Positions 18,638 through 52,493 of a stretch of 64,000 bases of DNA are shown piece by piece. This DNA is from Acanthaster planci. Taxonomy: Eukaryota. The stretch covers positions 1,116,789-1,180,788 of the forward strand of contig NW_019091356.1 in the NCBI RefSeq assembly GCF_001949145.1, given 5' to 3'. Made by a program: the position numbers and the translations under genes. Position 1 is the stretch's first letter; every line of letters begins with the position of its first letter. The notes beneath the pieces were generated by a model that saw nothing but the letters and a program-made list of their open reading frames with translations, was not told where the DNA came from and made no database searches.

Positions 18638-19081
18638 TCACTCCGAGTCCTTATATAGTGGCTTTATGAAATTCCGTTTTCCTAGCGTTTGCGGGGCGCG
18701 ACACATCCAGATCCAGCCATCCAGAGCTTGCGTGTACTCGTTCCAGACGTTGTCATCTAAGATTGCCATTTGTGCTGGATCAAGATGGCGCATACGGCCC
18801 ATGAGCTTGTCCAGTTGGCTGTCGGTATAGGAGGGCGAGATCACGATGGTGGAGTCATTGAGTATATCGGCTGCAATCGCAGACAGGTCATCCAGGTGTT
18901 GACGATATGTGTTCATAATGATAGGCCGGTCGCTATAAGCGCATTGACCCTTACAACGCATGACCTGAGTGGCAAGGACACATGCTGCTAGACACACCAG
19001 AAGTGTGTGAAAGGACCACTGGTGACCACGTCCATGAACTTGCCTGATATAGGAGCCCACAAGAGTAATTCCACCAGCCAT
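18638..19081 (-). CDS. Small secreted protein, family member A1 (147 aa): signal peptide, C-x79-C core, QTL-GKR amidation/cleavage site
   Basis: Acceptor tttcactacAG at 19102-19100, 18 nt before the ATG. Hydrophobic TLLVCLAACVLA, then QCAYSD...WIWMCRAPQTLGKR. GC-richer than its flanks and alignable with the ORFs at 44.7 and 52.1 kb. Confidence 0.85.
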   Translation of the reverse strand: MAGGITLVGSYIRQVHGRGHQWSFHTLLVCLAACVLATQVMRCKGQCAYSDRPIIMNTYRQHLDDLSAIAADILNDSTIVISPSYTDSQLDKLMGRMRHLDPAQMAILDDNVWNEYTQALDGWIWMCRAPQTLGKRNFIKPLYKDSE

Positions 19082-19457
19082 AGTTTGTGGTTCTTGACTC
19101 TGTAGTGAAAGACAAACAAAACCGAAAAATGTAAAATCTTATAATTGTGGGCAAGAGTGGAAAGTATAGGTGTTGTAAGAAACATTTTATTCAATCTGTT
19201 TATTCTAAGTCGACTCAATTAAAGTCCAACGAAACGAAAGCACAGGATTAGATAACTAATAATAAAACAGAGCCCCCCCCCAAAAAAAAAACTGCTACCG
19301 AATGCTTAGTGATGCAAATGACCTCAAATGTACAAGTCTTAAAATTAAGGTGGTCCGACGTTTTGATCACTGCAGAATCTTTCTGAAATGACCTGGTCAT
19401 TAGGAAAGAGTAACACTTCCCAACAGAAATCGAATATTCGTGTATGAGATTCAGCAT

Positions 19458-19607
19458 AGCCTAAAGGCCCGCTTCATACTTCATGCAAAAGCGAAAACGA
19501 ACTCGACTTTGTGACGTCAGATCAAATATTTGCTTTGCGAATGCGTAGATGCGTAATTTTGTCGTGACGTCAAATTCGCTTTTCGCCTGAAGCACGAATA
19601 GGCCTTA
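19458..19607. mobile_element. Short MITE-like element with terminal inverted repeats (second copy ~21973-22156)
   Basis: aaggcccgcttcatacttc ... gaagcacgaataggcctt, with internal inverted TGACGTCA-containing arms. Confidence 0.55.
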
Positions 19608-21197
19608 AGTCTGTACTCAGCGGCTTGATTAAGGAAATACATATGTGTTGGCTGAATTTTCCCCTTCTCTCATTACTTAAAAAACCAAAGGAGGGAGGGG
19701 TCGACTCCTGAGGGGCGTGGCCCCTGGCGTCATCCACCCACTATCCGTCTTTGAGAAGTGGTTCGCACGCACGCACGCATTGACGCATGCACGCAAGTAT
19801 ATTAACTAATAATAATAATAAATACCTAGGTACCAGTACGTATAATAACACTTCGCAGGATCTACCCAATAGTTTTCACGTCACTATATAGGTACGTCCT
19901 ATTTTTCACATACCTGAGTAAGTACATAATGTGATTACTATAAGTATCATTCATCCTATAGCATCGATATAATTCATGCAGCCATCTATGAGAGATGTAT
20001 TGCCGGTATTAACCGAACTAATACAGAATGCCTGGTGACAAAATCTTTATTTATTTAAGCCAAGCTAGTGTGCTTCTGGTTAAAAACAACGTGTGCCCCC
20101 AATTTCTAATACATTCTTAGAAAATTTGACTTCAGGTTATTCTCAAACCCGTCCACATTCTCAATCCACTTGATATCATATTTTACACCCGGAAGAGTAG
20201 TGTCAAGTCATTGGTTTTAGACCTAAATAAAAAAATGAAATATTTATTTTCTCTAACTGTTGGAGACGGGCGTTCATTAAGGGAAGTTGGCGAAATGAAC
20301 ACAGGATTTAGAATTTTATGTCGAAAACAAAAACACCCTTTCGGGGGTAATCCTCTTTGGGGGCGGGGACACAATTCATGACTGGGGTGCAGAAAAAGAA
20401 ATTTCAACGATATTATGCCATCAAACCAAAGTATTGACAATTCTCTCTTATTTTGGCTTCNGGGAAGTGCCTTGGACTATGTTACTCAAGCATGATTAAT
20501 TTGCATAACATTCCTTGCCACTATGTATTCTCTGACAAATTTGGTTTTGAATAGCCCTCTACACTCTGCAGTGGGTGTGTGGGGACAAACTCAAATCTGA
20601 AAGTAACTCTTAGCCCAATAATTTTTCTTTCTACCAATATTTATATAACCACGGTTTTCACACATTTCCCAACTTGTGATGTTAATGTAATATAAACATG
20701 ATTTATAAACTTCTCACATTGTGACAGCGTGCAAACATTAACTGTTATACTTGTTTTTAGGGTGTATATAAAGAAGTCAAGGACTGCGAAAAACCAAGCG
20801 CTTTTACAAAAAAATAAAGTCACATTAACACAATCAATTAATAGTTGTGTAATTGATGCTTTTCAAACACAATAATTAACATTATTAAGACGTCTATTAC
20901 TTGAACCTCGAAATAAAGCAGCAAAGTTTAGCCAGCGTAATGTTCACATTGATTCATTGCACCTTTCCTTTTGCACATAAATATACTCAAGCAAGCAAGT
21001 GCGGAATCTACTATTTGCAATTATTCATAAAATCTGTTCCCTGTCTTTCGTGTTTCCAATTAAATAATTTGTACGATCTTGTTTAGACCTCATTACCATA
21101 GAAGAGAAGTGTGTACTTTGAAATCAAAGATGGCGCCATCATGACGTCACTCCGAGTCCTTATATAGTGGCTTTATGACATTCCGTTTTCCTAGCGC

Positions 21198-21590
21198 TTA
21201 CGGGGCGCGACACATCCAGATCCAGCCATCCAGAGCTTGCGTGTACTCGTTCCAGACGTTGTCATCTAAGATTGCCATTTGTGCTGGATCATGTTGGCGC
21301 ATACGGCCAATGAGCTTCTCCAGTTGGCTGTCGGTATAGGAGGGCGAGATCACGATGGTGGAGTCATTGAGTATATCGGCTGCAATCGCAGACAGGTCAT
21401 CCAGGTGTTGACGATATGTGTTCATAATGATGGGCCGGTCGCTATCAGCGCATTGACCCTTACAAAGCATGACCTGAGTGGCAAGGACACATGCTGCTAG
21501 ACACACCAGAAGTGTGTGAAAGGACCACTGGTGACCACGTCCATGAACTTGCCTGATATAGGAGCCCACAAGAGTAATTCCACCAGCCAT
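21198..21590 (-). CDS. Small secreted protein, family member A2 (130 aa): near-identical to A1 but ends at CRAP*
   Basis: ATG at 21590, acceptor at 21613-21611. Ten substitutions versus A1 over the homologous 444 nt, including CAA>TAA four codons after the second Cys. Confidence 0.8.
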   Translation of the reverse strand: MAGGITLVGSYIRQVHGRGHQWSFHTLLVCLAACVLATQVMLCKGQCADSDRPIIMNTYRQHLDDLSAIAADILNDSTIVISPSYTDSQLEKLIGRMRQHDPAQMAILDDNVWNEYTQALDGWIWMCRAP

Positions 21591-23030
21591 AGTTTGTCGT
21601 ACTTTTGACACTGTAGTGAAAGACAAACAAAACCGAAAAATCTAAAATCTTATAATTGTGGGCAAGAGTGGAAAGTATAGGTGTTGTAAGAAACATTTTA
21701 TTCAATCTATTTATTCTAAGTCGACTCAATTAAAGTCCAACGAAACGAAAGCACAAGGATTAGATAACTAATAATAAAAAGAGAGCCCCCCCCCAAAAAA
21801 AAACTGCTACCAAATGCTTAGTGATGCAAATGACCTCAAATGTACAAGTCTTAAAATCAAGGTGGTCCGACCTTTCGATCACTGCAGAATCTTTCTGAAA
21901 TGACCTGGTCATTAGGAAAGAGTAACACTTCCCAACAGAAATCGAATATTCGTGTATGAGATTCAGCACAACCTAAAGGCCCGCTTCATACTTCGTGCAA
22001 AAGCGAAAACGAACCCGACTTTGTGACGTCAGATCAAATATTTGCTTTGCGAATGCGTAGAAGTTGAACACATTTCATTAATTGGAGTTAATTTTCGTTG
22101 TAAATTTTGTCGTGACGTCAAATTCGCTTTTCGCCTGAAGCACGAATAGGCCTTAAGTCTGTACTCGGCGGCTTGATTAAGGAAATACATATGTGTTGGC
22201 TGAAGTTTCCCCTTCTCCCATTACTTAAAAAACCAAAGGAGGGAGGGGTCGACTCCTGAGGGGCGTGGCCCCTGGCGTCATCCACCCACTATCCGTCTTT
22301 GAGAAGTGTTTCGCACGCACGCACGCATTGACGCATGCACGTAAGTATATTAATTAATTAATAATAATAATAATAAATACCTAGGTACAAGTACGTATAA
22401 TAACGCTTCGCAGGATGTACCCCATAGTTTTCACGTCACTATATAGGTACGTCCTATTTTTCACATACCTGAGTAATAATACATAAGTACATAATGTTAT
22501 TACTATAAGTATCATTCATCCTATAGCATGGATATAATTCATGCAGCCATCTATGAGAGATGTATTGCCGGTATTAACCGAACTAATACAGAATGCCTGG
22601 TGACAAAATCTAATTTATTTAAGCCAAGCTAGTGTGCTTCTGGTTAAAAACAACGTGTGCCCCCCAAATAAATTTCTAATACATTCTAAGAAAATTTGAC
22701 TTCAGGTTATTCTCAAACCCGTCCAGATTCTCAATCCACTTGATATCATATTTTACACCCGGAAGAGTAGTTTCAAGTCATTGGTTTTAGACTTAAAGAA
22801 AAAAATGAAATGTTTATTTTCTCTAACTGTTGGAGACGGGGCGTTCATTAAGGGAAGTTGGCGAAATGAACACAGGATTTAGAATTTTATGTCGAAAACA
22901 AAAACACCCTTTCGGGGGTAATCCTCTTTGGGGGCGGGGACACAATTCATGACTGGGTGCAGAAAAAGAAATTTCAACGATATTATGCCATCAAACCAAA
23001 GTATTGGCAATTCTCTCTTATTTTGGCTTT

Positions 23031-23284
23031 NNNNNNNNNNNNNNNNNNNNNNNNNNNNNNNNNNNNNNNNNNNNNNNNNNNNNNNNNNNNNNNNNNNNNN
23101 NNNNNNNNNNNNNNNNNNNNNNNNNNNNNNNNNNNNNNNNNNNNNNNNNNNNNNNNNNNNNNNNNNNNNNNNNNNNNNNNNNNNNNNNNNNNNNNNNNNN
23201 NNNNNNNNNNNNNNNNNNNNNNNNNNNNNNNNNNNNNNNNNNNNNNNNNNNNNNNNNNNNNNNNNNNNNNNNNNNNNNNNNNNN
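23031..23284. other. Assembly gap (N run)
   Basis: Continuous N bases. Confidence 1.
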
Positions 23285-24002
23285 AGCGGTCAAGTCAGAA
23301 AAGTTACTCAATTGAACGATTTCCACTTATTAAATAAAATATATTAATTTATTCTCTTGCTACTGTTTCTACTGGGATATTTGGGTGTGGAGAAATTCAA
23401 AGTAACTAAGGAACAACAATCCTTTTTCAATATTTCTCAAAACTTTGAAAAGAGAGTTGGGAGGTCTATTTTATGAACAAAAGCACTTTGTGAAATATTG
23501 AGGGGAATGGGCAAACCACAAAGAAAGATGATACTGAATGTAACAAGAAATAATATTGTGTGTTAATTAGATTTTTTTCTTAAAGTGAACGTTCAATAAG
23601 TCTGTTCTGCACATTTATTTGGTTGAATACAGACACAAATTTTATCTTTTGTGCGAAATCACTTTTTTCTCCAACTTATGGAAATATATTATTAATATTA
23701 GTTTAACGCCTAAAGCTGATGTCTGTTAAAATTTCCTCGGAGGACGAATGACTTTTCCTAAGTTATCAATTCAGTGTCTACAATATGAAACAAAAAAGAG
23801 TCTGATTCCTAATCTTCTGTATACCCTTTTTATAACGCTGGGTAAAAAAGTGGTTTTACAAATAATATTTTCTATAACCGTTGGGTAAAGAGACAAGTAT
23901 AATATTGGGAAAGAATCATTGCGGTATGGTAATTATACTTGCCGAGATTTTTACAGTGACGTAGGTTTATTGGCTTCTGTTTAGCGCCCCCCGAACGGAG
24001 AT

Positions 24003-24075
24003 ATTGGTAAAGCTCTGGTACGGTGTTCCAGAGGTCGCAGGTTCAAATCCCGCTCCAGTCAATTTGTTTGTTCAT
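24003..24075 (+). mobile_element. tRNA-derived SINE fragment
   Basis: ttggtaaagc (partial A-box), ggttcaaatcc (B-box), then a T-rich tail; no complete cloverleaf. Confidence 0.65.
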
Positions 24076-27006
24076 CTTTGTAATCATTATATAGTTGACA
24101 GAGAAAAAAATTTCATGCCATCTAATGTCATGTCTGGGACACCGTGCATTACTTGTTCATTTTTTATTTCATATTTCCTTAACTGGGCGCATTGTGAAGG
24201 AAATTTGGCAACCGTCACGGATACGTTATAGTCAGACGAAACCTAATAAGTCACGAAGATGCGACATTACGGTATTGATTGTAACCATAATTATCATGTT
24301 GACAAGATGTCCCTACGTCTACAACTCAGAAAGGTTCTAAATTATTCGTAACACTACAGATGATTTCCAAAGTCAATTTCTCGGTTGAAGAGTTTTTTGG
24401 GTACTATCTATAAATTATCTATAATTTACCATGCTCACATAATGGGGGCACGATTTTTTTATCGAACAACCTTGCCTCGCTTCTGGCTATTTGTTGAAAT
24501 CGGATTTAATTATCCACGAAATGAAGGCGGGACATTAATAGTAATTAAAGGTGGGAATGGTGTGCAGACTCTCGAGTGAATTCACCGAGTTCGCAAACCT
24601 TTTCAACCTTTTTAACCCTTTGACAATGAGTTTATAGCAAATACGAGGCTTTGGGGTACGTTGTAGAATAGGTAGGTTGTTAATTGACCGATTGAGTTAT
24701 TTCTAGGGTGAATTTCCGAGAGCAGAGTAGTTAGGCTTTATCTGCTTAACGATGTCAGGCCTGGTGCTAAATCAAACGAGCATAGGGCGGTAAGATTGAA
24801 CAAAGTGGGCGGAGTAATATACACATCAGGGTTATTGTGTTGTTCTGGTCTCCACCTGTGGCCCCACGTTTAGCAGATCTTGTAATGGGGTAGGTCCTAA
24901 TGGATCCGTCTATTAATGGCTGATGTCGGTGGTTTAACAACTCCCCCCCCACACACACTCTTTTGAAAATAGTTCCGCCGCTGTTGCCTTACTCCTTCAC
25001 AGATGAATCCAATACTTTTTTGGGTAAACACACTGTAGAGATGCGCAGCAATCGAACCACCATCCGTGAAAGGGTTGAAAAGTTTTGCTTAGAAAATTGT
25101 GACAGACATTTAACAATCTTCCAATCAGGCAGCAGCAGTACCTTAACCCTGAGGTTTGTCTAATTTAAATGGTGATCGAATGGAACAGCGCTGATAAACA
25201 AGCTACCAACACGGCTACACTCAGACTATATAAAAATAGTCATGAATAAAACGTGATGTATTTCATGCTATTCCGTCCCAGATTATACAGTTGCGAATGA
25301 ATCATTAATGTTTTTTAAATCTGATTTTTTATGTTATGTATTTTTAAGGGGTGAGACATTGACGCTGTTTTCAAATGCAGAGTGACTAAAATTAATTGAA
25401 CCTTATTTGATTTTGAAGTGATTTGGAGAAAGAATACTTCGAAACTAAGCTGCGTTTCGCCACCACAATTTCCGCCTGTGATTAATGTTTACATTAAATA
25501 CCACGAAAACTACAATTTAACTTGTGACAAAAAAACACGCACCGATCCACTAGCCCCATGGGGATGCTATTATGTCGGCAAATAAATAAAACTAAATCTA
25601 AGAAGAGGAGCAAAAAAGTTTTTTTCCCTTGCGACAGGAGCTACATGCCCTGTGTCTCAGACGAGACCATTACCGTAACCAGGCGCTTTTATGACAAGGC
25701 ACGCTCGCTCCTCAAAATTATGTCAGCTGGAAAGTATCCAGCCGTAGAATTCAGTCGTCCAAACGCAAAGTTCTAAGAATGCATTTGCATGGATCAAGGG
25801 AGTGATTTTTATATAATGAATACATTAAACAGTGCTTTAGCGCTCTTTATTATATCAAAATCAAAATTAATCAAAATAACTTTGCCCTTGGTATCCATTT
25901 GACATTTTTCTCTCATAAATCACAACAGGCCAATCCCCCCACAAAAAAAAAAAATACACAAACCTGGTAATGTTGTAGAAATGAATAATTATATGAACTG
26001 TTGATCAAAATCATTTCAGTTAGATCGCATTTCAGAAATAAATGCTAGAAATAGTTTGGAAAAACATGACGGACGGTTAAAAAGTTAAGATTTTGAAATT
26101 TTCATGCGTTTTGATAACACTTGGTGACACAAAAACAAGTTAACATTCCACATCTCTGCCCGCCAAATTCCCCTTGGGTGTACTTGGCTTTGACAAACTA
26201 AACGGCTCGCTGTAAACGCATAACTTTATGACAGGAGTTCTGTACAAAATAAGTAGCCACTGATGTAGCAAGCAGACTACTGTTCTTGATTGAGAAGACG
26301 CACATAACATGGCACACATATATACAATGGTGAGAAATTTTGTGACCTGCTGTTTCAAAACCAGGCTGATCTCTTGAAAGTCTACATTTTGGCTGCAGAA
26401 GGGTATATACCGGTAGTGAGGCCTCTAAAAAGGCAGTGAAAACATAAACAGTGGAAGTTCCACTTTTTTCAGCCTAGTTTTGGGGTAGTGGGTCACATGG
26501 AGATCACGAGTGGGGTTCATCCTTTTCTTGAGTACTTGATAAAAATGTAATGCGCGTGAAAAATGGCCCATGGAGTACATGTATATAGGACACTACCCAA
26601 CAATATTTGCTTCAGAAAAGCTACTGAGGATGATGCAAATTAACTGGTCAAAAGTGCCTGATTATTGCGTCTTTGAAAAAAAAATTGGGGGGAACAAGGA
26701 AATACTACACTTTGCCATAAATTACACAGCTAAAAAAATTTTACCGTCTCTCTGAGAATTTTTGATATTCTCATAGTAGCTAGTGAATTGCTTAGTACAG
26801 CTCTGCATTAACTTGAATACTGGAACATCTACCAGCGCTATATGCCCTGGGTGTCATAGAATATATGGCATGGGGGCTTAAAACCTTTGAAACATTGCAT
26901 CTTGCCGGCTGCTGTTTTATATTACCCCCGCTCATGAAATGACAATAGTTGAAGATTAATCTTTGGGATGAGGGAAAATGATTTCATTTGTCTGTCTCAA
27001 GCTTAC

Positions 27007-27220
27007 CTGAGTTTCCTCTCAATCGCACGCCTTAACGATTTTCCCGGGTTGTGTGATAGTGCTGGCCTCCGGCTCGAGACTGTTGAAACAATACCCGATG
27101 TGTCTGGTTGTCAATCGAAGACAGCAAGCCAAACCGACGGGTAGGACCGACAATGTGCAGTTTGCAACAGCTAGATAGTTTACTTCGAAGTACCTTTCCC
27201 GTTAGTGACCAGCCAAGGAC
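27007..27220 (-). other. Putative non-coding first exon upstream of A1/A2
   Basis: Strong donor CAG|GTAAGC at 27007/27006, CpG-richer sequence, and TATA-like GATAAAA at ~27248-27242. The link to the A1/A2 acceptors is inferred. Confidence 0.4.
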
Positions 27221-28057
27221 GTTCAATTTACTTTTGACGAATTTTATCTTCTGAGCGCCCTCACGTGTTGTCGAAAGAAAATGCAGGTTTTCAGTGTACT
27301 AGACAGCAGTGGGAAAAGGTACTTCCGATTTTAGAAAATTGAAGAAAAATTAGTTGCAAGGCATGTATACTGGCAAAACTACAGATGGCCCAGCGCGTGG
27401 GTGATTTATTTTCCACGATAGAGAAAAAGGTTGAGGGGGTGGCTCCCCCGCCTCTTTAAGAGTAAAGGCATAGGGAATTTAATGCAACAGAATGCCCGTA
27501 AACAGTCTTTTTTCCTCGAAAGGTAGTTTTCTTAGCTGACAAAAGCCAATCAGATATGTAAGTTCAAATTGTGGATGAAATTTACGTCAAACCCATCAAA
27601 GCATCTTTCCTGGTACTGTATTTCCTAAACAAGTTTGGCGTCAGTTCGTGGAACAAAAAAATCAGTCCATGTCGCGTCAGAGTCTGATGTACGCACGCAC
27701 TACCAGGTGTTTATGAAACTGAATTTGTTGCAAAGGTGGTTTACACGAACCAACACCCACTTCCCAATTAGTGTTAGTTCGTTGTGTTGGTGACGATATT
27801 TGACTAAATTCACAGAATGAATGAAAATAATTTGTAAAAGGAATTGGCAATATATTGCACAACTGTAGTAAAACCATAATCCATTTATTTCATGTGTTGA
27901 AGTCTAATGCACTGATGTTTAGTTGACCTGAGTGCACTTTTATTCATTTTTGTTGGAAGAGTTCTTCAAAGAAATTGACATCGAGTATCCGCTTTGAGCT
28001 ACAGACAATATGAAAGTTGGGGGATCCCTCACTGATCTTCAAAGCAAAACTACCTAA

Positions 28058-28632: not shown

Positions 28633-31600
28633 CTTCAGCACGTCATAACTTTCTGAAGTTCCATTGTACGCAGTTGTTGAAATCAGCATACATGGAGTTA
28701 GGAGCTCTAAGTTAAGTAGTGGAATCGGGAGTTTTTTTTTATCCTTTTCTCTTGCAAAAAGTGAGCCCCCCAGGTCAGAAAATCCGATTAAAGATTATGT
28801 AAAATTGGTTTAATCAAAAATAACGCCTTAAAGCACGTCTTTTAAGACGTGTGGGGTTTCATGAACCTCAAGCCTAGTTTGTGGCGATTGCTTCAGTATT
28901 AGACATGGAAATTCACAAGTGATTAGTACAACACAAAAGACCCTTTACAACTCTTAAGTGTTAATTTTGAGTCTTAATCAGTAAGTAAGTGGAAATTATT
29001 ACATTCTAAATTAACTTCAGTTTAACCATGTATTTCAAAGTTTCTGGAAGATTTTTGCAGACTTTTTGAATGTCTGTTTTGGGCTAGAAATAAAAAAAGA
29101 TGAGCAAATAAGACTTTCACAAAGCCCCTCTTTATCAAAACTACTAATACCATATTTCAAATTACCGCAGACTTGCCCACCTAAGTCAACTATCTGTGGC
29201 TTTTTCTGCACATTCAGTTGGGGTAAGGCCTAATTTTCCAGAGAACGGTGAGACATATCTATGTGACTGCCGTGTTTGTTCATCATTTCAGAAAACAGAC
29301 ACGTTTAAAACGAACTAATCTAATGAAAGAGATTTGTGCATGCCAGTTTGAGGGCAGTACTGTTGGTACTGTTCGCACAAACCAACAGTATTTCGTGGAA
29401 AAAAATTCTGTTTGAAGTATACTGGAAATATTTGATTGGTATAACTTATAATTGCGATATTTCTTGATTGAGAATAAATCTACAGTTAAACTTCAGTACA
29501 ATATTGTTCATGTATTGAGTTACGTAGTGGCCGAGGAACTGATTTTTTTTATTAGAACATAAATAAATGCATAAATTTACCATTACATTTGTAACAATTA
29601 TTACATAAACCCAATAAACATGTAATCCGAAGTAATTCTAAACACAATATCTGCACTTTTCAACCCTAGAACAGTTTAAATGTAAATTTACATAATCACG
29701 TTTACTGAGTTATAGGGAAAACTTAGGTATTTGTTTTCTCAGTAAAAATTTACCAAATTTTTATGAACAAACTTACCCAACACCTCTTTGTAAAAATTCA
29801 ATTATCAGAAGGTTCGTATGGCTCCATGCAGTTGTGTAAAATTGTACACAACCTGGGTATTTTTCTCTGTGTGTAGTTATATACATTTAACTTTGACTTT
29901 AATATCATCCTTAAAGGTTTCTGTACCATGAAAGTATATAGCTTAATTCAAAGAATGGAGCATACAATATTGCAAGAAAGAGTAACGCAAGATTTGTTTC
30001 TTTGTTGAATTACAAAATTTTTCTTACATGTGTAAAACCTGTTGTGCTGAGGATTCTGGCTACTCAGATGCTGTTTTGGGGGGAAAACTTGGACAGAAAT
30101 ACAAAATGGCAACATTCAAACTTGAGAAGATAATTGTGATGTACATTATGTGATATGTTTGCCACAATAAGTAAGTGGAATAAAGTGTTATAACTTAATG
30201 ATGAAACAAATCTTAACGCAACAAACGCGACCTTGGACAGCCGAACAGAGAGCCGTATGTAGGCCTACTAAAGTAGAGGATACTGCATTATTGAAACGTG
30301 TGTAGTCTTTGTTATCTTACGAGACACAACTGGAGATACACAAGTAACGAATAGAAAGTATTCTCAAGTAAATTTGGCTCAACGGCAAAAAGTGTTAAAC
30401 TATTCAAAGTGTTAAACAGCAGTCGACTAGTTAAGACCTTGCTGCTGTCTTGAAGCGAGCTGTCGAGAGTCTATAACAATATGCAGCCGTGCTGGTTGAG
30501 TACCCGTATCAAGTGAACGACTGAGTGTCCGAAAACATCGAGTCGACAGCAAGTACCCTCTTCATCCTTGTGAGGGTCACTTAAGACCGGGAAAACCGTG
30601 TGTTTTGGGCTGTAGTTAGCGCTGGGAGGTCTGGCCTGACATGGTTTGTCTGACATGGTTTTGAAACTTCACTCCTCTCGGCTTTCAAATAGTCTGACGC
30701 TTGTGGTAAAGTTAGAATTAAGAAAAAATATGGGGCTAGCCGGTAGACGGGCTTCCAAAATACATGAGGATTAGCCACGCGTGTTACTGAGAGTTAAAGT
30801 AAGAGTCAAAGTAAGATAAATTGCCAATTTTGTGTTGTTCAGCTGGGTAGCAGTCTCAACTGGCTTGAAGTTTGCTACTTCGATTTGCACTCACGTCGTA
30901 ATCCGAGCAACTAAGTAAATGGTCTGTTGATAATTGTAACAGGCGTCGACGCCACACTACGTTGACCCAAAATTATAGCACGACAAAACGTCTACTTGCA
31001 TTTGTGCTTGTTATCTGTCCTGTAATGTTACTCCATACCGCAATACGCTGAAATACGTTCGCTAACACCCTTCCTGTTTCCCACATCAAAAAATCTCCCC
31101 AAACTAAGACCGAATATTGTTATGGCAACAATTAACAGACAAATCGAACTTCATGACATATGAAGCAAGATAGCACCCCCACCTTTGTGTTGGTCATTGT
31201 TTGATTGGATCCTCAGGAATTCTTTATAGACATGGGGGGGGGAGGTAACAATACTGTAGAGTGTGTACAAGGATCGGACATGTGGGGTGTGCCCCTCTGT
31301 CCCATATCTTGCTTGCGAATCCCATTACAAGAGCCACCTGTTGATATTTTTGATGTGGCTAAAGAAAAAAATAAAATTTGTTTCAAACTAGAAAAAAGAC
31401 ACTACAATGCTAACTAGTGAACGGATAAACAGTATCTCCAGCCAGTCTAGCGAGGCATCATGTTTCATTTTACTTGCCGTTTGCGTGTGCATTTTTCTTA
31501 AAAAGTCGTGGAAGCTCCATGAAATCAATGCCGACGTCAATTTGGCGTCGGGCTTTTGATTCGTTTAAGGATCGACAACAGATTCTGCATCTGCCAAGTT

Positions 31601-33954: not shown

Positions 33955-34045
33955 CCGACAAGCTCGGTGGTCGAGTGGTTAAGACGTCTAGTAAGCAGGG
34001 GGTCGTGGGTTCGAGTTCCGCCCGAGTAAGCTTGTGACTTTTTTC
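33955..34045 (+). mobile_element. tRNA-derived SINE fragment
   Basis: A-box-like tggtcgagtgg and B-box ggttcgagttcc, followed by gtaagcttgtgactttttt; the anticodon arm is not tRNA-like. Confidence 0.7.
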
Positions 34046-35046: not shown

Positions 35047-36053
35047 CTACACCAGACAGTTCTTAGGCGTTGCAATCAGCAATCTGGCACCGTACGACGT
35101 GTTAGCACCATGGAGTCGGTGAAGCGACTTGATCTCCTGGAGCGACTCCTCAATGTTTATATCTAGACTGAAATTAAAATTAAAATTAAAACACACCTTA
35201 CAGGTATATATTAAGTGTCACTGACTTGAAAGTGGTATTTTTGTCTTGTTTACTGCCAATCTTTTCTTTGTAAATCATAAACGTTCGTAAAACTGAAACT
35301 TTCTCAGAAAAATCTATTCAGACTGGTTTTCGAAACTAACTTTGTGTTGCTCGACTTAAGAGATTTCTGGTCCCTTTTAGATTTAGCGCCACCTCCGTTC
35401 TCAGTTTCTATTTCATTCCAAAATAAACCATTCTCAGCAGATAATAGAAAATTTGTCCAGGCCTAACTTAAAATTGACATATTTCCTCAGATGTTACCAA
35501 AATACCAGTCGTGTTTCCTCTTCTTCCACATTTAGTTGGTCTTGACGTCACTGATGATGGTATCCGATGTGCGCCGATGGTATCCGATGTGCGCCGATTG
35601 AAAGTCCTTTTCATTGTAGCACCAGAATAAACCTCCGCTTTTTTGTGCAAAATAGAAAAGCGTGTGGAGATGTCAACAATTATACTCCAATCAGCATTCA
35701 TCCCCCGACACCCACGCCAGATAGGGTGCTAAGAAGTAGGCAGAGCCATCAGGTGTTCTTGCACCGATGTTAACGTGTAGATCATGCGCACCAGGCGAGC
35801 TGGATTGCGTTTCCCGTCACGCGCAGACGGCACATCGGGTGTCCCGTACACGCCTTCGATACTGCCGTCTCGAGGGCGGAAACAAGTACTTGTGGGCCGT
35901 AATTGGCCGCTTGAGGCCTCGTCGACCCCTCGTCCGTGATGCGTGTGGAGAGAAGGGCAGGGTTACAGGGTATCATATGCCGTAAATTGGGCAAAATAAG
36001 ATGAAACCGTCCGCGTAATAAGCGAGCTGTCTACTCAATGTAAAAGGCGCCAT
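35047..36053 (-). pseudogene. Disrupted member (D) of the small secreted protein family
   Basis: ATG at 36053: MAPFTLSRQLAYYADGFILFCPIYGI*...HKYLFPPSRRQYRRRV. After a frameshift, 35797-35732 reads RLVRMIYTLTSVQEHLMALPTS* (member C has LFLYTVRQFEDRV and RLVRMYYRLREV). A segment at 35167-35047 behind a strong acceptor reads LDINIEESLQEIKSL...PKNCLV* (compare DIEQLVSEV in C and LKNC in B). Confidence 0.55.
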
Positions 36054-39000
36054 TTGGCAGATCGTGACCGAGCGAAGTCTGAACAATATCACCTGTGTCA
36101 TGTAAAGAGTCAGCTGCATATTTCTTAATACGACATTCAATTTGTACCTCCTTCCGTGTGAGGTATGCTCATAGTTCAGGGTAACCTTGTTGGGAGAGAT
36201 TCAGACAATTCCAACTCGGGGTTTTAGCGGCATGTAATTTCCTGCACCTCTATACATGTATTCTTTCAATATTGGTGTGGCTGGAACAAGGTTGCACCTC
36301 CCCTAATAATTGGTTCTATGTCCACCCTTTTGCTGTAAAGCCTTACATGACCTATAACCCGATTCATTTACAGTATTTGCATAAGTCTTTTGCCACTGGA
36401 TTAAGGATTAATGTACAGAGCGGCACAACATCATAGGTCTCGCCCCGTGCACCTCCTTTGGAAAACTTGAAAAACTACGGGTAACTCCAAAACATTGTAG
36501 GTATTCAACAATGAATGGAATCGTTGTTGTTTACTCCATGCCTGATCCTTTTAGGATTGTCAGTTCCGTTCAATGACGTATTTTTCTAATGAAGTAATTT
36601 AAATTGCTCCTGGGATAAATATTTCTTCATAAATGGAACGAATTCGAGAAGCTGTTTTCAACACGCAATCACAGATGTTTGTGGTCATTCTTTGCTTTGA
36701 AAATTATTAAGTATATATTACAAATCAAGTGTTGTTGTTGACAAAGGGGTGTTCCATACCCTCTCCTCCAAGCATCGACTGGCCTTTGACATCAGTCGTA
36801 ACTCACTGCATAATTCGACAATCTCCACCAACTGAATCGGGTATTTGATTCTTTGTTCTAACAGATAACTTTGCATCTTATATCCTCTGAAGCTGAGGGA
36901 GACAAGGGGACATCGTACGGTAAATTTTAATTTCCGTTGCATACGGAGACCGACAATCATGCTGCGCTCGAGAAGATCGATTTCTTCACGGGATCAGATA
37001 AGTGCTGTTTAAGGGCGCGATCCTACGCACTTCGTAAGTATCGATTAATCAACTGTCTGACTGTTTTTTATTCAAGGACAACGATCAGGATTAAACCTTT
37101 AAAACTAAGCCTGTGTGTGAGTGTGTAAACGACTTCAATCGTGGACCTATAACAATAGGGGACAATAGGGTCCACGGTTGCCGAAGAGTCCACGGTTGGA
37201 AAACGTGTACAAAACATATGGGAGGTCTTCCGAAAAAGTTGAAGTATGAACAAAAGAGGAACAATAGGGAGTCTACAAAGGAAGGCGTTTACACACGTGT
37301 GTGTGCGTGAAAAATTCAATGAACCACGCTTTAAGTCAAGCGAATGAGAGCAATTTTTTTATGTGGACAAAAATGTACAAAACAATTATGTGGGCTTTCA
37401 GTTCTCCCACAAACGAGCGGAGAAAGAGGCAATGAAGTCTAGAATTATTCCAGTCATTCTAAGATTGCAAACAGTCAACATAAACAGTAAAAACAAAGCT
37501 CGTAAACTGTGGAACCTTTAGAACTCCAAGACACATGGTATTTTGAGTTGGCCTGATGCCAAGTTTGTATCTGGTGTGGTATCCATTTATTGGGTAGAAA
37601 TGGGTAAAACAAAGAAGAGAACCGAACAGACAACGGTCGTTATTCTCACATGATTAGTCAATTTGGACAAAAATGTAGAGTTTACCTTTGTACAGATACC
37701 CTGACATTGTCCCACTTGTCTAAATCGGGCGAAAGTCAACTTGGAGTAGAAGCTTTTTTCCACAGTGTTTCTGGGTCTGAAGCTTATGACTCGTCAAATT
37801 AAGAAATAAAAAGGAGAGAGCCATCAAATTTCTCTGTCGAAAAATACTGAAAGACGTGTTGGTATTCAGTGCATATTCAGTATTGCCCGGGTGTATGAAT
37901 ATTTGTCACTCGACTGGGCCACTTTTCGCAAATAGTTGACTCAAATTAGGTCCTGCAGGCTCCCGGCATTGTGTCTACCCAGACTTGGGAAATGCATGTT
38001 CCAAGTGTCAGCGACCGCTGTGGATTCTATATACAAAAAACCGACAATCAAAGACGAGACACTTTCCTTTTGCAGTGGCGGTTTCATTCATTATTCAAAA
38101 TAATGCCACTTGCGACTTACCTCCCTCTCCTGTAAGTATAAGCTGTCAAATTGCCCTGATGTTAACCTGCATATTTGCTCAAATAACACCCCATATGGGC
38201 TATATTAGCTGCATTTGGCGTTTTCAGGTTCTCAGAAAAGTGCAACTCCCGCGCGTCCGTAAATGTCAGTCGTAATCACATTTTTTCCAGAAAGAGACCA
38301 CAAGTCGCGCACAACTTGGTTTCGAAATCGCACATAGAGCGGGCTCTTTTGGTGTTTACTTATTGCCACCTTGTGACACTGTTTTGAACCTTAATTGAGA
38401 AATCGCCGTCGATGACCCACACACGTACCTGGTAAAGTAAGTCTCCTTTTTCTGTAGTCTTCAACCCCTCTCGGTCTTCACAACGTGTGCACCCGACGTC
38501 TCTGCTCAGCCGATATGTAGCAGGAGAAGATAATTAGGTCGACTGTAATCATCCAGCACATGAAATGTGTGGTGCTCGGGGTTGATTATCGAGTTGGTTG
38601 TGAAGACACAGAAAGAAAGCTGGAGGCATTTAACATCCCAAACATCACTCAGTTGACATAATTTGTCCGTTAGTAAGGCAAGCAAAGCCCCACTCTTTGC
38701 CTGGTTTGGCGTGCACTTTTGATATTTCAACTGAAAGAACAAGCGATGTTGACATTTTGAGTGATGGATAATAGCTATTACGTTCACTGCGCATTTGGGC
38801 AGTTTCTGATCATGTCAAATTTTGGCAGATTTTTCCCCTGTTTTCTTTCTGCACATTCTACATTGTTAGCGTTTTACACGTCATGATCGTTTTCAGTGTT
38901 GCTTTCGTATTGCTTTTATTTCATCTGCAGTAAGTACATGATTATATACTTTGTTATCTGCCCGGTCATAGACAACAAAAATTAATTCAACGTGAAACAA

Positions 39001-44672: not shown

Positions 44673-45053
44673 ATGATCACGAAATTCACCAAGCTCATCC
44701 TCCGCGTCATGACTGACTCCAGTTTCTTGTCTCCACCCTTTTGTTGTGATGTCTCTTCCTTGCTTCATACCCAGTCCCACCAGTTCAAGTCTTGCTCCAC
44801 CGGCGGCCCGGCGTCGAACTGCCGCCACACGGTTAGGAATAACTGGGCCACGATGTCCCGTCTCTTCGGGCGGTACTTGGATGGTCTCGCGCCCCAACTC
44901 CATGAAACGCTAAAGAAGGCTGTGCTAGAGCTGTTGGACGCACCGGATGACGGGATCCAGAGCATGGTGAACTCCGTTAACGATGGAAATGGTTATTGGA
45001 AATGGTACTTCACTTGGCTCAAGAATTGTCAACCTCAGACGCTTAGGCGCTGA
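44673..45053 (+). CDS. Small protein, family member B: C-x77-C core ending CQPQTLRR*; N-terminus and signal peptide uncertain
   Basis: TVRNNWATMSRLFGRYLDGLAP aligns with TVRQFEDRVAALYNRHFSKDLTP of C; IQSMVNSV with IEQLVSEV; CQPQTLRR with CRAPQTLGKR of A1. AATAAA at 45198-45203. Possible phase-0 acceptors at ~44773 and ~44782. Confidence 0.72.
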   Translation: MITKFTKLILRVMTDSSFLSPPFCCDVSSLLHTQSHQFKSCSTGGPASNCRHTVRNNWATMSRLFGRYLDGLAPQLHETLKKAVLELLDAPDDGIQSMVNSVNDGNGYWKWYFTWLKNCQPQTLRR

Positions 45054-46835: not shown

Positions 46836-49000
46836 ATCTCACAGGTAACACTGAAAACTGAAACGCGTCTTTAAAAAGACACTTTGCTTCATACAAGTGC
46901 GATAGCCGATGGAAGTATATATGAGATAAGACTGTAATGCAAGATGACAACTCTTTAAAATGAAAAAAAAAATGATACAAGGGTAAATTACAGAATGACT
47001 GACAACTCCCGAAGGCTGGCTGAAGTCCAAACCGTACCGAGAAGGTTTTCGTTTTCACTAGCACAAATGACAGGCCCGCACGTTTTGGGTAATCCCATCC
47101 GCTGGTAAAAAAAACCACTTGTCCAAGATGGATATTCAAACGTCTCTTTCGACATTTAGTGTCCGGTCGATTTTGTGCCTTTCCCGCAGGGGATGTTTCG
47201 AAAAATGCTTGCATAGGCAACATTCATACCATAATTGGAGATAATTAACCTTATAACCTGTTGTGGTAAGTAAACCCAAACCAACATCAGTCCATTTACT
47301 TTTTCCCCTAAGAACAGCCTGTCAGGTGAGGTATAAGTAAATGTTCTTTTGGTTTACTTCTTCATCTCATATTCATTAGGGTACAAATTAGTATATCACT
47401 GACAGTTTGTATGGTCCTGACGAATGTTTGTAGTTGTGGGGTGTTTATGTCAAACAGGAGAGATTATATTCCACATATTCATCAGTCCCACAGTGAGGTA
47501 AAGTTATGTCGAACTCCCCCGAATCTCAAGCTTTCCCTATTTTTGTCTCAGACGTTGGAGCAAGACATAAAAACAAAATAACCTGAAAAAACGATCTGTC
47601 CGAGTAAGAGACGTTGACATTCGCTCTGGGAATGACCTGATCGAGGTTTAGACCAAATACAGAAACCGTTTCACTCGAATGAAATGCATGTACCGAAACA
47701 TTCCAAACTGGCGAAACAGATGCGGTCCTAATTTAATGTTTAGGCCTTTGTCGCGCCAACGAGCGCCCGCAAACAACATTATGTTGTTATTCTATCTTAT
47801 TCTATTCTATCTAACGTATAATAGACATAGTGGCAACGGGTTCGTTTGTTTGTTGGGTCGTTGGAGTGTTTGTTTGTTTTCAATTTTCATACTAAAATTC
47901 TCACCATTAGTTAAAATCAACGCACCACGATGAAGGTCAGCAGCATATAGCGTACTCTGGGACAAGACAGGTGGTCAAATTTCTCCTGTTTGCGGTCTGA
48001 AATGACCCATGAACAGAAGCGCTCGGGTGAACGATTGGATATTGGGAAACAACTCAGTTTGACGAGACAGATTGGTTTTTTAATTGGAACTGATTGCTGC
48101 GTTCTTTCTTGACAGACAAACTGACCAACCAACCGACCGGGCGACCAACGTAATTGCTGAACGACCAAAAGAATGTCTAGGTCTCAGTCCAGCGATTCGC
48201 ATCATAAACTTACCAACTTATGGACCTAACTTCGGACTAACCGAGGGCCGACTTCTCTGCCATCTGCCATTCATCTGCCCTCTACCGCCTCTGCCAATTT
48301 ATTTCAGGACACGACTTGCTCTTACAGCATACAATTGTCTTCCCCGAACTTGCCAAATCTTGACGCATTATCGCGCACACATCTCACCTGCCTATATCGA
48401 CTCGGGTTTATTACTACTCATTTGCCCACAAATCACACTTTGTGTTGCCACGGTAACACAATACGTTAACACGTAAATCTTGCCTCATAGCACCTCATTA
48501 ATTAGACATCGTCCAACCACATGTCGCCGCTTTTTCGAAGAGTTAGGAAACAACATGCAATGACCTCCCAGCTCAGCACGTGATGTGCTCACCTACCCAG
48601 TATCAGTGATGATATCAAGAAAGATGAACTCAGTCTGGGGGGCAATCGGAAGCACTGATATACGATCCACACAAGAACTTTTTCTCGCACAATCGTTTAA
48701 TACCTCGCCAAGAGAGAAAGCACTGTGATTGAATTTCACGGGCACCCGGGCCTGCACCGAAGACAAAGGAACAAGAGTGAGTGGGGTAGGAGAGTTTGTT
48801 AGCATCACCAAGCGAGGCATCCTCCCACGAGGAGCCATTTGAACAAAGACTTCGCGGGGACGTGAGCCTGTTGCGTAGCGCTGTTGGTCACAAAACATCG
48901 CAATTTTTTTTTTGTATCTGTCTCTCCAGCACTTGATCTTTGTCAAAGGATGATTCGAAATCTGTTAGAATGATTGCAGGCTCATCACCCGCGGGTGTAT

Positions 49001-49214
49001 TATAAAAGCTACTCGCTGAAAGTGGAGATTGCACAGACCAAATCGCACTTCTGAGCGGCCGGCACGCATCGGCAAGTGAAGTCCACCAAGATTGTTTTCA
49101 TTTTCGAGGATACTTCGGACAACGCACTCCTGGCCCTATCGATCTGAACAGCGGCAAATTAACAGCGACTTCCGAGACCGTCTCATCGTATATCATATCC
49201 CGGGGGAATAGAAG
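49001..49214 (+). promoter_or_regulatory. TATA box and putative non-coding first exon of member C
   Basis: TATAAAAG at 49001-49008, a CpG-rich ~185-nt stretch, and donor AAG|GTATGT at 49214/49215. The matching acceptor would be ttttttcccacAG ending at 52103. Confidence 0.55.
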
Positions 49215-52112
49215 GTATGTTTGTAGACACAGAACACACCAGGCTTCAGGGGAAGACTGAGACAGATTTATCTTTGTTAATTGATTACGTAAAAATCCTA
49301 TAGGACTATATATCCGATTCACTTTTTGTTTTATTTGTTTTTTTCTAGTTCTTTTTCTGCTGAAGGACTGACTAAGATAAAACAGTTTTAGAAGAATTTC
49401 CGTCTTCAACGTATTTGTAGGAAGCTCAGATCAAATTACCAGGAAAAATGTTGTTCGAGTTTTGTCAGGAAAAATTGATTTACATTATCAATGAATACCC
49501 TTCCCCAGAGACCTTAAGTTGAATCAGTTCAGTGCGTAGTCTAGAAAATAGCAGACACTCTTTGGAAACGTCATTTTGCATTTAGATTCATTTAGCTTCC
49601 ACTTTTACTGGTGTCGCGCTCTCTGACTTCCAATAATGGTCATTCCTATTTTCGACTCCCGATTCGCATGTCACTGCCTTCAATATCCGTTCAACGTTAT
49701 TCCCTTTGAGTGTCATTGTAGAAATTGTATCTCGATATTCAGGCAAAAATACTGTCGCAAACCCTCGAGCTTTCCCACTTTTTTCCGGTAATGATGAGAA
49801 GTCAGTTCTTTTCAATTTGCCGGAGTGCCTTGTGCCTTTTACTTTACACCCATACTTGAGTCGCCTATAACTTTTTTTCTTGTTTAATGTTAATTGTGCG
49901 GATCGTTGTGACTCTGCCAGTGAGTGAATGATCGTCCCGATGAAAGCTAAGAGATCTAAACAAACACGGGCGCACGACCGCAGTTCCGCAGACTCCCCCG
50001 ATTTGCTCGGCTGCACGGTGACGTACATGCGACACCATTGCAGCTGCTGCCAGTTGCATCGCGGGCAAATCACCATATATCAAAAATGATGATCGCGCCG
50101 CCAAAAAGACCAATTCGTCATTCTTGTAGTCATAGTAACCACACTTTTTTTGTACAAGTAGACAGTGCGTCTGGGTATTATTGTTTGAAGAGATATTACG
50201 TTTATATTCATAATGGAAGTGGGTCATTACCTATTAATTTAAATGAAACATTCGTGGTGGCACAAAAGTTAAAAATGCAATCATAACTCGAGAGGAAAAA
50301 CAAATTTACTCAAATACCATCCACTTTGTTACTGTGAATCCAACTTGTTTAACATTCTACAATATTCGTATAATTGCGATTTATAATTTTCCTGTCGTAA
50401 TCAAGTTCCAATATACATGTACATTCGCTTCAGTACGTGTTGGATCTTTTTTTGCGGAGCGGTAGCAAGTGTTCGCGAATGCATCAATCATGTAGTAAAT
50501 ACATGCACATCTTGACGCACACAGTTCGACGTCTCACCTTTCTAGCGCTATCGACAAGAGTACGAAAATTCAAATCACCACCACCCGACCCTTCGAGTGT
50601 TCATTCACCGTTAGCGTAAACGATGAAATATAATGTGTGTGTTTTTCATAGCACGATGCCAGTGATCACTACGCAACATTTGCAATCCGTGTAACGAAAG
50701 TCATATTTGCGCGTTCATGATTCTGAGATGTGAATACTGGCGCAAAGAAATGGCAGTTTATAACATGTCAGCCCCTTGTCTTAGATGTACATTTGATATT
50801 ACACATAGCCTGTGTCATGAACCGTAAAAATAAGCGTATGGGTCTATTAATGCGACCTCTAATATGACGAAGGCAAGTAAAGAATCAACCAAACTATCCG
50901 GTAACTCTGTTCACTCTTTTCACGGCCACGCTTAACCAAAAAAAAACCCCAAAATAGATCGACTTTTTTTTCAACAAGATTACACATTTGCAGGTATAAG
51001 TGCTTTTTTGATCGATGCCACATTTTAGCAGACCTGCGGATATTTATGTAATTAAAGACACGGTTAAAACTGTGTAAGGAGTGTAACAAATGATCTGAGC
51101 GAAAACTATGTTATCAAAAATGTAAGACAACGTCCTGCAGTTTAAGAATTTGTATAAAAAATTAGATATTCTTTTTATGATTTACATGTATTTTTCGTAG
51201 AAATAAAACTATGAGAGTTTCGAACCAGCTTAATTCAGATGCCCTTTAAAGACCTTTTTCATGTAATGGTAATTCAGACATTGGCGGTGATCTTGCCCTC
51301 TGTTTGTTTCGTGGGCTAATACTACTACCAATACAACTCATTTTCATGCCACGTCATTTATTTACTTTAAGGTAGGAATCAAATCTTTACTCCAAATACC
51401 GACTAGAAAAATGCTGCCCAGTTGTCTCCTTTCAAGTCTTATTCTATCCCAAAGAAATCAGCTGGCAATGAAAAATAAACTGTCCCCTTGAGTTTCGTGA
51501 AGATTGTGACATCTTTCCCCCTTCGTTTAAAACTACGTTGATATTTCTTAAATGCTGGGGAGTCAGAAAAGATGATTTTAACCACTTAATGCCCGCTTTG
51601 ACCGATTGCCAAATCTCCTCTGGCGTCACTCGTGGCCGCCGAATGTTATAAGGTTGTCTATATCATTTACTGATGGCATCTTTCGTTCTGCTTGGAATGT
51701 GTTGTGTTGAGCTCAATACCGATTTATTGAATTGGCATGGCTACAGATTCTTGTCTTCGTTCCTACGGTTACCGATGGTCACACTATAACGTTGATGGTC
51801 AATGTGGAAGAGGCTGGTATCAGATTTGGGCATTAGATAAGGAAGATATCTGTCACACACGCAAGAGGCTGACTTTTTCGACGCCTGCATGCATGAATGT
51901 CATTTTTTTAAATCGTTCATGATACTTTTTTGCTCATGCGCAGTGGCAGCTATGGCTGATAATACATATTGATTAGCTGTGAAAAAGAAACGTTTCCAAA
52001 AATTTCGGGGCAACTAGTCTTTGGCATTACGTACATAGAGGTCCTTCGATCATAATATACATCATGACGTCCACAGTGTCTGAAACTCCATTTTTTCCCA
52101 CAGATAATCAAG

Positions 52113-52493
52113 ATGGAGCGGCGACTTTTTCTTGGTTGGTCCACGGTCTTAGTTCTCCTCGTGCCTTTGTTAATAGAGCTCCCACGACAGTCGTCAGCGG
52201 CGCCCTTCAACTACTCGGCGCACTGCCGCGATATGAACCGCGGTACAAACGCGCTCTTCCTATACACAGTACGCCAGTTCGAGGACCGGGTGGCGGCGCT
52301 GTACAACCGCCACTTCAGCAAGGATTTAACGCCCCCTCACGGCATTAACCGCCTGGTCAGGATGTACTACCGTCTGAGGGAGGTGCGGGACCAGGCCCAA
52401 GACATCGAGCAGCTGGTCAGCGAGGTGGAGGAGGTGTTCCTCCTACGATTGGGGAGGCTAGAGAGGGACTGTAAGATGCAGATACACGGCTAG
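52113..52493 (+). CDS. Small secreted protein, family member C (126 aa): signal peptide, C-x81-C core, C-terminal His-Gly-stop
   Basis: Acceptor 9 nt upstream and aagATGG start context. Hydrophobic VLVLLVPLLI with an SSA|AP cleavage-like site, high GC3, two Cys, NYS sequon. Confidence 0.88.
   Translation: MERRLFLGWSTVLVLLVPLLIELPRQSSAAPFNYSAHCRDMNRGTNALFLYTVRQFEDRVAALYNRHFSKDLTPPHGINRLVRMYYRLREVRDQAQDIEQLVSEVEEVFLLRLGRLERDCKMQIHG

Follow-up and report, generated by a model that had tools for sequence, protein, structure and literature searches.

Two genes within a 64,000-nucleotide stretch of the Acanthaster planci genome (the window) likely form a single sea-star family, so far undescribed, of amidated protein hormones that nerve would secrete and a cell-surface receptor would receive. 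The initial annotation of this DNA had proposed a locally expanded cluster of five helical proteins, comprising four open reading frames (A1, A2, B and C) and a broken copy (D). All four frames were found at the coordinates claimed for them, but the five copies are two real genes, A1 and C, together with one likely pseudogene, one near-copy and one chance-level match. That these are real small secreted proteins is borne out by both genes: A1 is among the proteins listed for a nerve-cord proteome, and C is spliced and conserved. The best reading of the family's build, judged from sequence and model, is a neurosecretory hormone of ~90 residues, predicted to be helical and likely to be disulfide-closed and amidated.

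Two secreted-protein genes

Gene C encodes 126 aa in one exon (52113..52493, forward strand), with a signal peptide ending by eye at about A29 and a predicted mature chain of about 96 aa that holds C38 and C120 and finishes with CKMQIH-G-stop. A non-coding first exon (48935..49214, forward), with TATAAAA at 49001-49007 in the region as drawn from the sequence, is represented by a contig piece, 48935-49212, that is joined to the coding exon across a GT-AG intron of 2889 nt in the 5' UTR (49215..52103, forward). This splice joint was present in all four RNA runs (1, 4 and 2 reads, plus one contig). The 3' UTR (52494..54400, forward) is about 1.9 kb long with AATAAA at 54299 and 54393, and a 2559-nt RNA contig of the gene extends beyond 54100. 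Orthologous frames and transcripts had been named as things to look for, and C has both: orthologues in Patiria and Asterias are 78, 66 and 67% identical, and C and all seven fetched relatives (3 clusters) contain exactly two cysteines and a glycine directly before the stop codon. Conservation of this terminal glycine points to amidation of the predicted chain. Across asteroid orders, C is 66-78% conserved. When a four-sequence C profile was run with HMMER against 1.84 billion representatives, the Patiria protein was the sole match, and neither HMMER nor word-index searches found a relative outside the asteroids. A search of the nerve-cord proteome table of PMC9971248 did not find C.

Gene A is read on the reverse strand. 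The A1 coding sequence (18638..19081) specifies 147 aa in one exon, with a signal peptide whose cleavage we place by eye near G45/Q46, a predicted mature chain of about 88 aa containing C47 and C127, the tail CRAPQTL-G-KR, and an 11-aa C-terminal propeptide. Its sequence is that of oki.2.73, an entry of both Table S1 and Table S4 in PMC9971248. The supplement of that study places oki.2.73 in the radial nerve cord's soluble RP-HPLC LC-MS/MS list, within a table of protein entries with no peptides given, and scores it as SignalP-positive with neither a BLAST nor a Pfam hit. Its TPM values are 20.0 in female nerve, 37 in male nerve, 19.5 in spine and at most 3.6 in seven other tissues (PMC9971248 supplement). 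Expression of gene A is nerve-enriched; its level in nerve is modest, and in females it is equalled by spine. A1 RNA depth was low in all four runs examined here, and a word-index search (lengths 0.55-1.75 times the query) gave no A1 orthologue.

A2 (21198..21590, reverse) is a close copy of A1 whose frame stops at codon 131, three codons short of the amidation glycine. It sits in a 2.3-kb duplicate, 20727-23029 versus 18217-20459, with 95% DNA identity and N gaps beside the copies at 20461 and 23031-23284. Because both copies end on the same base beside an N gap, A1 and A2 probably represent a single gene, with A2 likely either another haplotype or a duplicate of the last exon. Their ten codon differences (one silent, eight missense and one stop) give no evident sign of purifying selection. 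An RNA contig from run X2 matches 21429-21610 without differences, carries 127 letters off the stretch, and has its break precisely at 21610, the acceptor of A2. A candidate non-coding first exon for gene A is inferred at 27007..27133 (reverse; donor CAG/GTAAGC at 27007/27006), where RNA depth is low in bins 26446-27739 and a repeat contributes part of it. A likely long 3' UTR occupies 15239..18637 (reverse), with low-depth contig pieces at 15239-17951 (run X2) and AATAAA sites. Genes A and C would thus have a like plan, consisting of a non-coding first exon, the entire frame in one exon and a long 3' UTR, and they lie within 33 kb of each other.

The hydrophobic N-terminus and the acceptor before the ATG that had been ascribed to A1, A2 and C are present in each, and RNA shows splicing at the acceptor of C. 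These are also the only three of 52 ATG-initiated frames (at least 70 aa) with a 12-residue Kyte-Doolittle mean of at least 2.7.

Relationship among A, B, C and D

Sequence comparison gives moderate support to a common ancestry of A, B and C. The segments that had been quoted for the three proteins do align as written, and their cysteine spacings are as claimed: A1 C47-C127 (x79), B C41-C119 (x77) and C C38-C120 (x81). Spacing alone is common, as 16 open frames (at least 70 aa) of the window contain C-x(77-81)-C. Aligned globally to the C family with the cysteines as anchors, A1 gave a z of 3.2 and B of 3.1 (3/2000 shuffles each), and A1, A2 and B hold ranks 2-6 among 158 C-x(65-89)-C stretches. 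Block shuffles that preserve the helices and keep the tail gave a weaker result than plain shuffles, with 61-126/2000 for A1 and 14-56/2000 for B, and B against A1 alone was not significant by global alignment (154/2000).

A1 and C have a common tail, C-x2/3-Q-[IT]-[LH]-G with either a stop or KR after it, which is an amidation signal. This shared glycine-ended tail is the best link between the two genes, and it had been overlooked in the initial annotation, whose hormone-like reading it strengthens. The patterns were devised after sight of the sequences, with decoys that are for the most part non-coding frames; with that understood, 127,996 codons contain C-x2/3-Q-[ITVL]-[LH]-G before a stop or dibasic pair twice (C and A1), a count reached by none of 100 shuffled windows, and C-x76/82-C-x2/3-Q-[ITVL]-[LH] occurs three times against a shuffled mean of 0.01.

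Might A and C nevertheless be unrelated secreted neighbors, alike only because both have amphipathic helices and an amidation signal of a generic kind, with B unrelated or a relic? It is in such a reading that the failure of every local and profile method finds a ready place. Pairwise blastp among A, B and C gave E values of 1.4 or worse, an hmmsearch of 2140 segments with the C profile brought up neither A nor B at E up to 20, and the profile-profile similarity that had been looked for is lacking, with hhalign probabilities of only 0.2-0.5%. A1 and C are about 21% identical in protein, their cysteine spacing is a common one, and they have no DNA likeness (290/300 nulls as high). Against this stand the global z of about 3, the joint match of tail position and sequence between A1 and C, equalled in 845/200,000 draws from A1's own composition, and the same gene plan within so short a distance. 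The claim of shared ancestry is supported by the global alignments and the tail motif and by none of the local, HMM or profile-profile tests, and we regard unrelated neighbors as unlikely. Were A and C unrelated, two orphan precursors would be left, which is ordinary for starfish.

The B frame (44673..45053, forward) encodes 126 aa with C41/C50 and C119 and the tail CQPQTL-RR, but no in-frame signal peptide and no amidation glycine. Its GC3 is 0.69 versus 0.34 GC in the flanks; upstream are an acceptor-like AG at 44602 and an in-frame ATG at 44604 that is followed by a stop. RNA depth over B was about 0 in 4/4 runs (tissue of the runs not given), and no homologue was found by word-index search (lengths 0.55-1.75 times the query). 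We read B as a likely paralogue in decay that lacks a signal peptide.

The proposed broken copy at 35-36 kb, D, is a GC-rich island (35730..36080, reverse) with faint likeness to C and no intact frame. Its score of 32.8 in a frameshift-aware scan is indistinguishable from chance, for which the best scores were 31.8-42.8. D is the best non-self DNA tile for C, but at 54 versus 50 for a Smad exon; it has no codon-position GC bias and zero RNA depth in 4/4 runs. Its status as a broken copy of C is unproven, and the protein-motif and DNA alignments to C are in different registers.

Predicted structure and proposed mode of action

The AlphaFold2 model of C (pLDDT 75) has helices at 41-68 (kinked into 41-55 and 57-68), 78-90 and 96-125. 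The A1 model is poor (pLDDT 46), with helices in the same order. Of the helical bundle closed by one N-to-C disulfide that had been envisaged, the predicted helices and the two conserved cysteines stand, and the disulfide itself is a prediction. Single helices mostly had hydrophobic moments no higher than those of shuffles. The family had not been recognized on first reading, and Pfam, PDB and fold searches likewise gave no known family. Pfam returned none above cut-off for A1, A2, B, C and three relatives, and PDB sequence searches gave weak matches only, the best (E 0.03) being a designed helical protein. With the C model, fold searches gave no match at E <=0.001 in the pdb and viral sets; the best VIA Z, 6.1, was to ion-channel pore helices in a generic arrangement. 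None of these blanks makes the fold new or excludes a family. In the ESM Atlas, C was without a usable match and A1 met three bacterial clusters under 0.8, at chance level. Literature searches with short motifs and accession terms of these proteins gave no match, and motifs and gene ids were absent from the supplements of PMC9759900, PMC10448888, PMC11957666 and PMC11093393 (the last without files 11 and 12).

How might such precursors work? The signal peptides of A and C would be cleaved off, after which precursor A would be cut at KR, whereas precursor C would require no cut. The exposed glycine would become a C-terminal amide, giving ...PQTL-NH2 from A and ...QIH/QIL-NH2 from C. Each chain is predicted to fold into two long helices and a short joining helix, which would bring the two cysteines together for one disulfide, and the amidated tail of 5-6 residues may protrude and enter a GPCR pocket, as has been proposed for FAM237A on GPR83. 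In this scheme B would be a likely decaying third paralogue and A2 a truncated haplotype or duplicate, with D left unproven.

The family could be real and yet serve an external or tissue-defence role, as a pheromone or a spine or epithelial secretion, perhaps in a secretoglobin-like disulfide-linked dimer. Spine TPM (19.5) is near that of female nerve (20.0), A diverges fast with no orthologue found, the surface of the nerve cord is itself a secretory epithelium, and the same animal has a spine-secreted clustered family, the attractins (PMC11957666). What makes this role improbable is the conserved terminal glycine, suggestive of amidation, the 66-78% conservation of C across asteroid orders, the absence of the motifs from the supplements of two spine-secretion papers (PMC10448888, PMC11957666), and the unlikeness of the printed attractin peptides to A and C.

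The analogy with EPO/IL-4 cytokines fared worse. Short-chain helical cytokines acting in immunity through class I cytokine receptors would likewise be secreted and helical with one N-to-C cysteine pair. However, mature four-helix cytokines are roughly 110-170 aa long, and the predicted chains of 88 (A1) and 96 aa (C) fall outside that range, with three predicted helices of which the first is kinked. The protein evidence comes from nerve, and the amidation signal is, to our knowledge, not a cytokine trait. The analogy is unsupported, and we consider a cytokine identity very improbable.

The neurohormone reading of A and C is of practical interest. Crown-of-thorns starfish are coral-reef pests whose neurohormones are studied for control. 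Neuropeptide screens seek short repeated peptides between dibasic sites, so single-chain amidated hormones of ~90 residues are easily missed, and C has no dibasic site ahead of its final glycine. A conserved asteroid protein of this build, together with a nerve-detected relative, provides concrete candidate ligands for orphan echinoderm receptors.

Comparison with known systems

The attractins of Acanthaster (oki.327 cluster) are a clustered, genus-specific, spine-secreted family (PMC11957666). They resemble A and C in being secreted, clustered and lineage-restricted within this one animal, but have other gene ids (A1 is oki.2.73, not of the oki.327 cluster), are spine-specific and are cut into peptides, and those printed contain no cysteine and have no likeness to A or C (PMC11957666). 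The unclassified starfish precursors, namely Arnp11-Arnp25, the ApNp series and other No_BLAST nerve proteins (PMC4772807; PMC9971248), are similarly orphan, nerve-expressed and equipped with a signal peptide, with no relatives outside echinoderms. Those described in the parts consulted yield short peptides or hold 6-8 cysteines, unlike A and C, and in these descriptions (as distinct from the figure sequences) none is a single chain of ~90 residues with two cysteines about 80 apart.

The architecture of A and C is most reminiscent of vertebrate NPGL/NPGM (FAM237A/FAM237B), the ligands of GPR83 (10.1101/2022.09.27.509696). These have a signal peptide, one large mature chain of 80-83 aa with three predicted helices, two conserved cysteines in one disulfide with a short tail past the last, a glycine-plus-dibasic amidation site, and neural expression (10.1101/2022.09.27.509696; PMC5768754; PMC4625114). 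A and C likewise have a signal peptide followed by one large chain that, by predicted processing, ends at a glycine amidation site (G-KR in A1, G-stop in C) and two conserved cysteines in the predicted mature chain (C and 7/7 relatives); three helices are predicted for C, and the fold searches brought up no FAM237 structure. The analogy is one of architecture and breaks down over two sequence features. Cysteine spacing is about 55 there versus 77-81 here and the tail is 8 residues ending in H-G-L/M there versus 5-6 here, the FAM237 values being derived from W17 and H78-G79-L80 (10.1101/2022.09.27.509696) and from NPGM fragments (PMC4625114) on the assumption of like spacing in the paralogues. 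The ends are Q-T-L, Q-I-H and Q-I-L in the starfish proteins versus H78-G79-L80 (10.1101/2022.09.27.509696) and Gly-Met-NH2 (PMC5768754). C lacks a C-terminal propeptide, and the reported range of FAM237A runs only from fish to mammals. GPR83 appears among bilaterian receptor types and is also listed in Xenoturbella. A and C could, at a long shot, be viewed as long-diverged invertebrate equivalents of NPGL/FAM237 that activate a starfish GPR83-type receptor. They would then be the first invertebrate ligands for this bilaterian receptor type, and the crown-of-thorns starfish would have in them a signal for feeding or growth. Because the vertebrate ligand has the same overall plan, GPR83-type receptors would be the first to try.

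Genuine genes and the splicing of gene C

Which of the four short open reading frames and one broken copy that the initial annotation grouped as a cluster of divergent two-cysteine proteins are real genes? Gene C is a genuine gene. Its 126-aa ORF (52113-52493, + strand; GC3 0.76) is linked, 9 nt upstream of the ATG, to a non-coding first exon (48935-49214) by a 2889-nt GT-AG intron (49215-52103), and the splice joint is found in all four runs, through 1, 4 and 2 reads in three of them and through a 2559-nt contig in the fourth, presumably an RNA run. The relatives found for C are confined to sea stars: Patiria miniata XP_038079030.1 (78% identity) and Asterias amurensis XP_071788868.1 (67%), both annotated as uncharacterized, and an unnamed third (P0002; 66%). 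C has both transcripts and orthologous ORFs, and the seven relatives fetched, in three clusters, all possess exactly two cysteines spaced 81 residues apart and the C-terminal end Q-I-[HL]-G-stop. The AlphaFold2 model of C from four sequences (pLDDT 75; approximately 85-94 across most of the core) predicts helices at residues 41-55/57-68, 78-90 and 96-125. Since the weak structural neighbours of this model, mostly channel pore domains, place a short helix between two long ones, the C chain may be a hairpin that would bring both cysteines together.

Gene A is also a genuine gene. Compared side by side by eye, its 147-aa ORF A1 (18638-19081, - strand) matches the crown-of-thorns starfish gene model oki.2.73, which identifies the window as Acanthaster DNA. 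A published proteome of the radial nerve cord lists oki.2.73 in Table S1 (soluble RP-HPLC) and Table S4 (secreted), marked SignalP Y and without a BLAST, GO or Pfam label, in rows that carry neither peptides nor scores (PMC9971248). Its expression is nerve-enriched, with TPM values of 36.9 in male nerve, 20.0 in female nerve and 19.5 in spine, and lower values in testis (3.6), oocyte (3.35) and tentacle (0.83); egg, gastrula, mouth and podia are all at 0 (PMC9971248). The main text of that paper, in the portion available, does not mention oki.2.73, and as far as we have seen A1 is in print solely as an unnamed table row. In the accessible part of its supplement 2, oki.148.20, oki.28.37, oki.105.36 and oki.148.17 are strongly nerve-enriched without BLAST hits and look like unnamed precursors. 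All four runs show some RNA depth, though little, across gene A (15.4-22.5 kb); a word-index search (10 candidates) found no relatives of A1. The near-copy A2 (21198-21590, - strand) lies with A1 in a 2.3-kb duplicate of 95% identity; both copies start from the same base of the intron, where each meets an N gap, and a single candidate first exon was seen. From this arrangement, A1 and A2 look to be either a pair of haplotypes assembled one after the other or duplicates of the last exon. A2 differs from A1 by eight missense, one silent and one stop change and has lost the amidation site, and one contig departs from the genome precisely at the acceptor of A2 and runs on for 127 further letters. 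Within the A1 coding sequence, 18884-18973 is an imperfect inverted repeat (score 78.5 against its own reverse strand).

Relatedness of A, B and C

The proposed protein-level relatedness of A, B and C is not detected by blastp (E at least 1.4), by hmmsearch with the C profile (neither A nor B listed up to E 20) or by profile-profile comparison (hhalign probabilities 0.2-0.5%), but it finds support in Cys-anchored global alignment to four C-family sequences (A1 z 3.2, B z 3.1; 3 of 2000 shuffles each). When 158 stretches taken from 44 frames are ordered by global score to the C family, A1, A2 and B occupy ranks 2-6. Block shuffles preserving helical periodicity and the tail, the segment after the last cysteine, gave 61-126 of 2000 for A1 and 14-56 of 2000 for B, and B against A1 alone was equalled by 154 of 2000 shuffles. 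Sixteen open frames share the cysteine spacing of the cluster, a point against relatedness. In its favour, 15 of the 71 ungapped core columns hold a hydrophobic residue or Ala throughout the six rows. With ORFs picked in the initial annotation for their likeness and tail patterns broadened after the sequences were seen, C-x2/3-Q-[ITVL]-[LH]-G followed by a stop or a dibasic pair is present only in C and A1 (two or more occurrences in 0 of 100 shuffled windows), and the pattern minus Gly arose in 845 of 200,000 draws from A1 composition. We consider A and C probably homologous, and the balance tips slightly towards B being a paralogue.

B (44673-45053, + strand; 126 aa) has a coding-like GC3 of 0.69 and lacks both a hydrophobic N-terminus (1.2 versus 2.4-2.9) and the amidation Gly. 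Its RNA depth is approximately 0 in all four runs, a silence that is weak evidence, since the runs are of unstated tissue and only some 20% of the raw reads in each was covered, and a word-index search found no relatives. Because another frame of its 5' part is a hydrophobic stretch with two stops, the sequence suggests that B is decaying. D (35730-36080, - strand), a GC-rich island, is unproven as the broken copy it was taken for: it reached E 11 with the C profile, its frameshift-aware score of 32.8 is at chance level (chance bests 31.8-42.8), and it has no codon bias. D is the top non-self DNA tile for C among 488, barely exceeding a Smad exon, and its alignment with C was matched in 0 of 300 trials under a Markov null that does not preserve the GC-rich core. 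The cluster is smaller and less proven than the five copies claimed: A and C are two genuine neurohormone-like precursors, both undescribed, B is likely a third, decaying member, and A2 looks like a haplotype or duplicate.

The initial annotation did not recognise the family, and searches made with a shallow profile of C and with one sequence each of A and B led to no family, structure or relative outside the asteroids. Searching full text gave no match to a motif or accession of these proteins, which could nevertheless be in print under ApNp names, for instance in figure images or in the neuropeptidome and genome papers of 2017.

Neighbouring genes and repeats

The window, which is animal DNA, contains four scaffold gaps and four single Ns. 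To the left of the cluster lie the terminal coding exon of a Smad gene (2649-2948, +; Pfam MH2 E 1.5e-22) and an intronless 461-aa ORF with Pfam F-box and seven WD40 domains (8274-9656, -), which could have originated as a retrocopy; to the right are exons assigned by homology to NCLX/SLC8B1 (56434-62515, +), of which the long acidic exon 59040-59867 has no Pfam match. A tRNA-like sequence (33961-34029, +), slightly over the Rfam cut-off and with hundreds of divergent RNA reads, is likely a tRNA-derived repeat. Short transcribed interspersed repeats (16369-16620, 24014-24084, 31176-31295 and 37117-37303) have many divergent reads and loose ends, and MITE-like inverted repeats of 56-231 nt and 80-85% identity occur at 7609-7838, 12161-12277 with 12988-13106, and 33090-33145 with 33563-33618. 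The 113-aa ORF at 32853-33191 (-; GC3 0.59), which overlaps an inverted repeat, has low, divergent RNA depth and no Pfam match, is probably repeat-derived. A weak reverse-transcriptase-like fragment (11119-11376, -) is below the Pfam RVT_1 cut-off (E 0.031).

Processing and comparison with known systems

Glycine before KR, or before a stop, is a substrate for C-terminal amidation. Mature A would comprise approximately 88 aa (46-133; 10.1 kDa) and mature C approximately 96 aa (30-125; 11.5 kDa), each presumably with one intrachain disulfide. The short amidated tail (from CRAPQTL-G-KR in A1 and CKMQIH-G-stop in C) may be the receptor-activating end, and by analogy only, the receptor class would be GPCR.

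The suggested likeness to helical cytokines fails on size and drew nothing from fold searches, and comparison with the available part of the attractin report (PMC11957666) led us to reject A and C as attractins. The architectural analogy with NPGL/NPGM (FAM237) holds for the overall plan. FAM237A is an 80-aa chain with a single disulfide that is predicted to form three helices, and its binding to GPR83 requires the amide and the disulfide (10.1101/2022.09.27.509696); in the sources available, GPR83 is listed as a bilaterian receptor type and is found in Xenoturbella, and another source includes GPR83-type receptors solely as an outgroup. Because their cysteine spacing and tail motif differ, A and C are not assigned to FAM237, although they share its plan.
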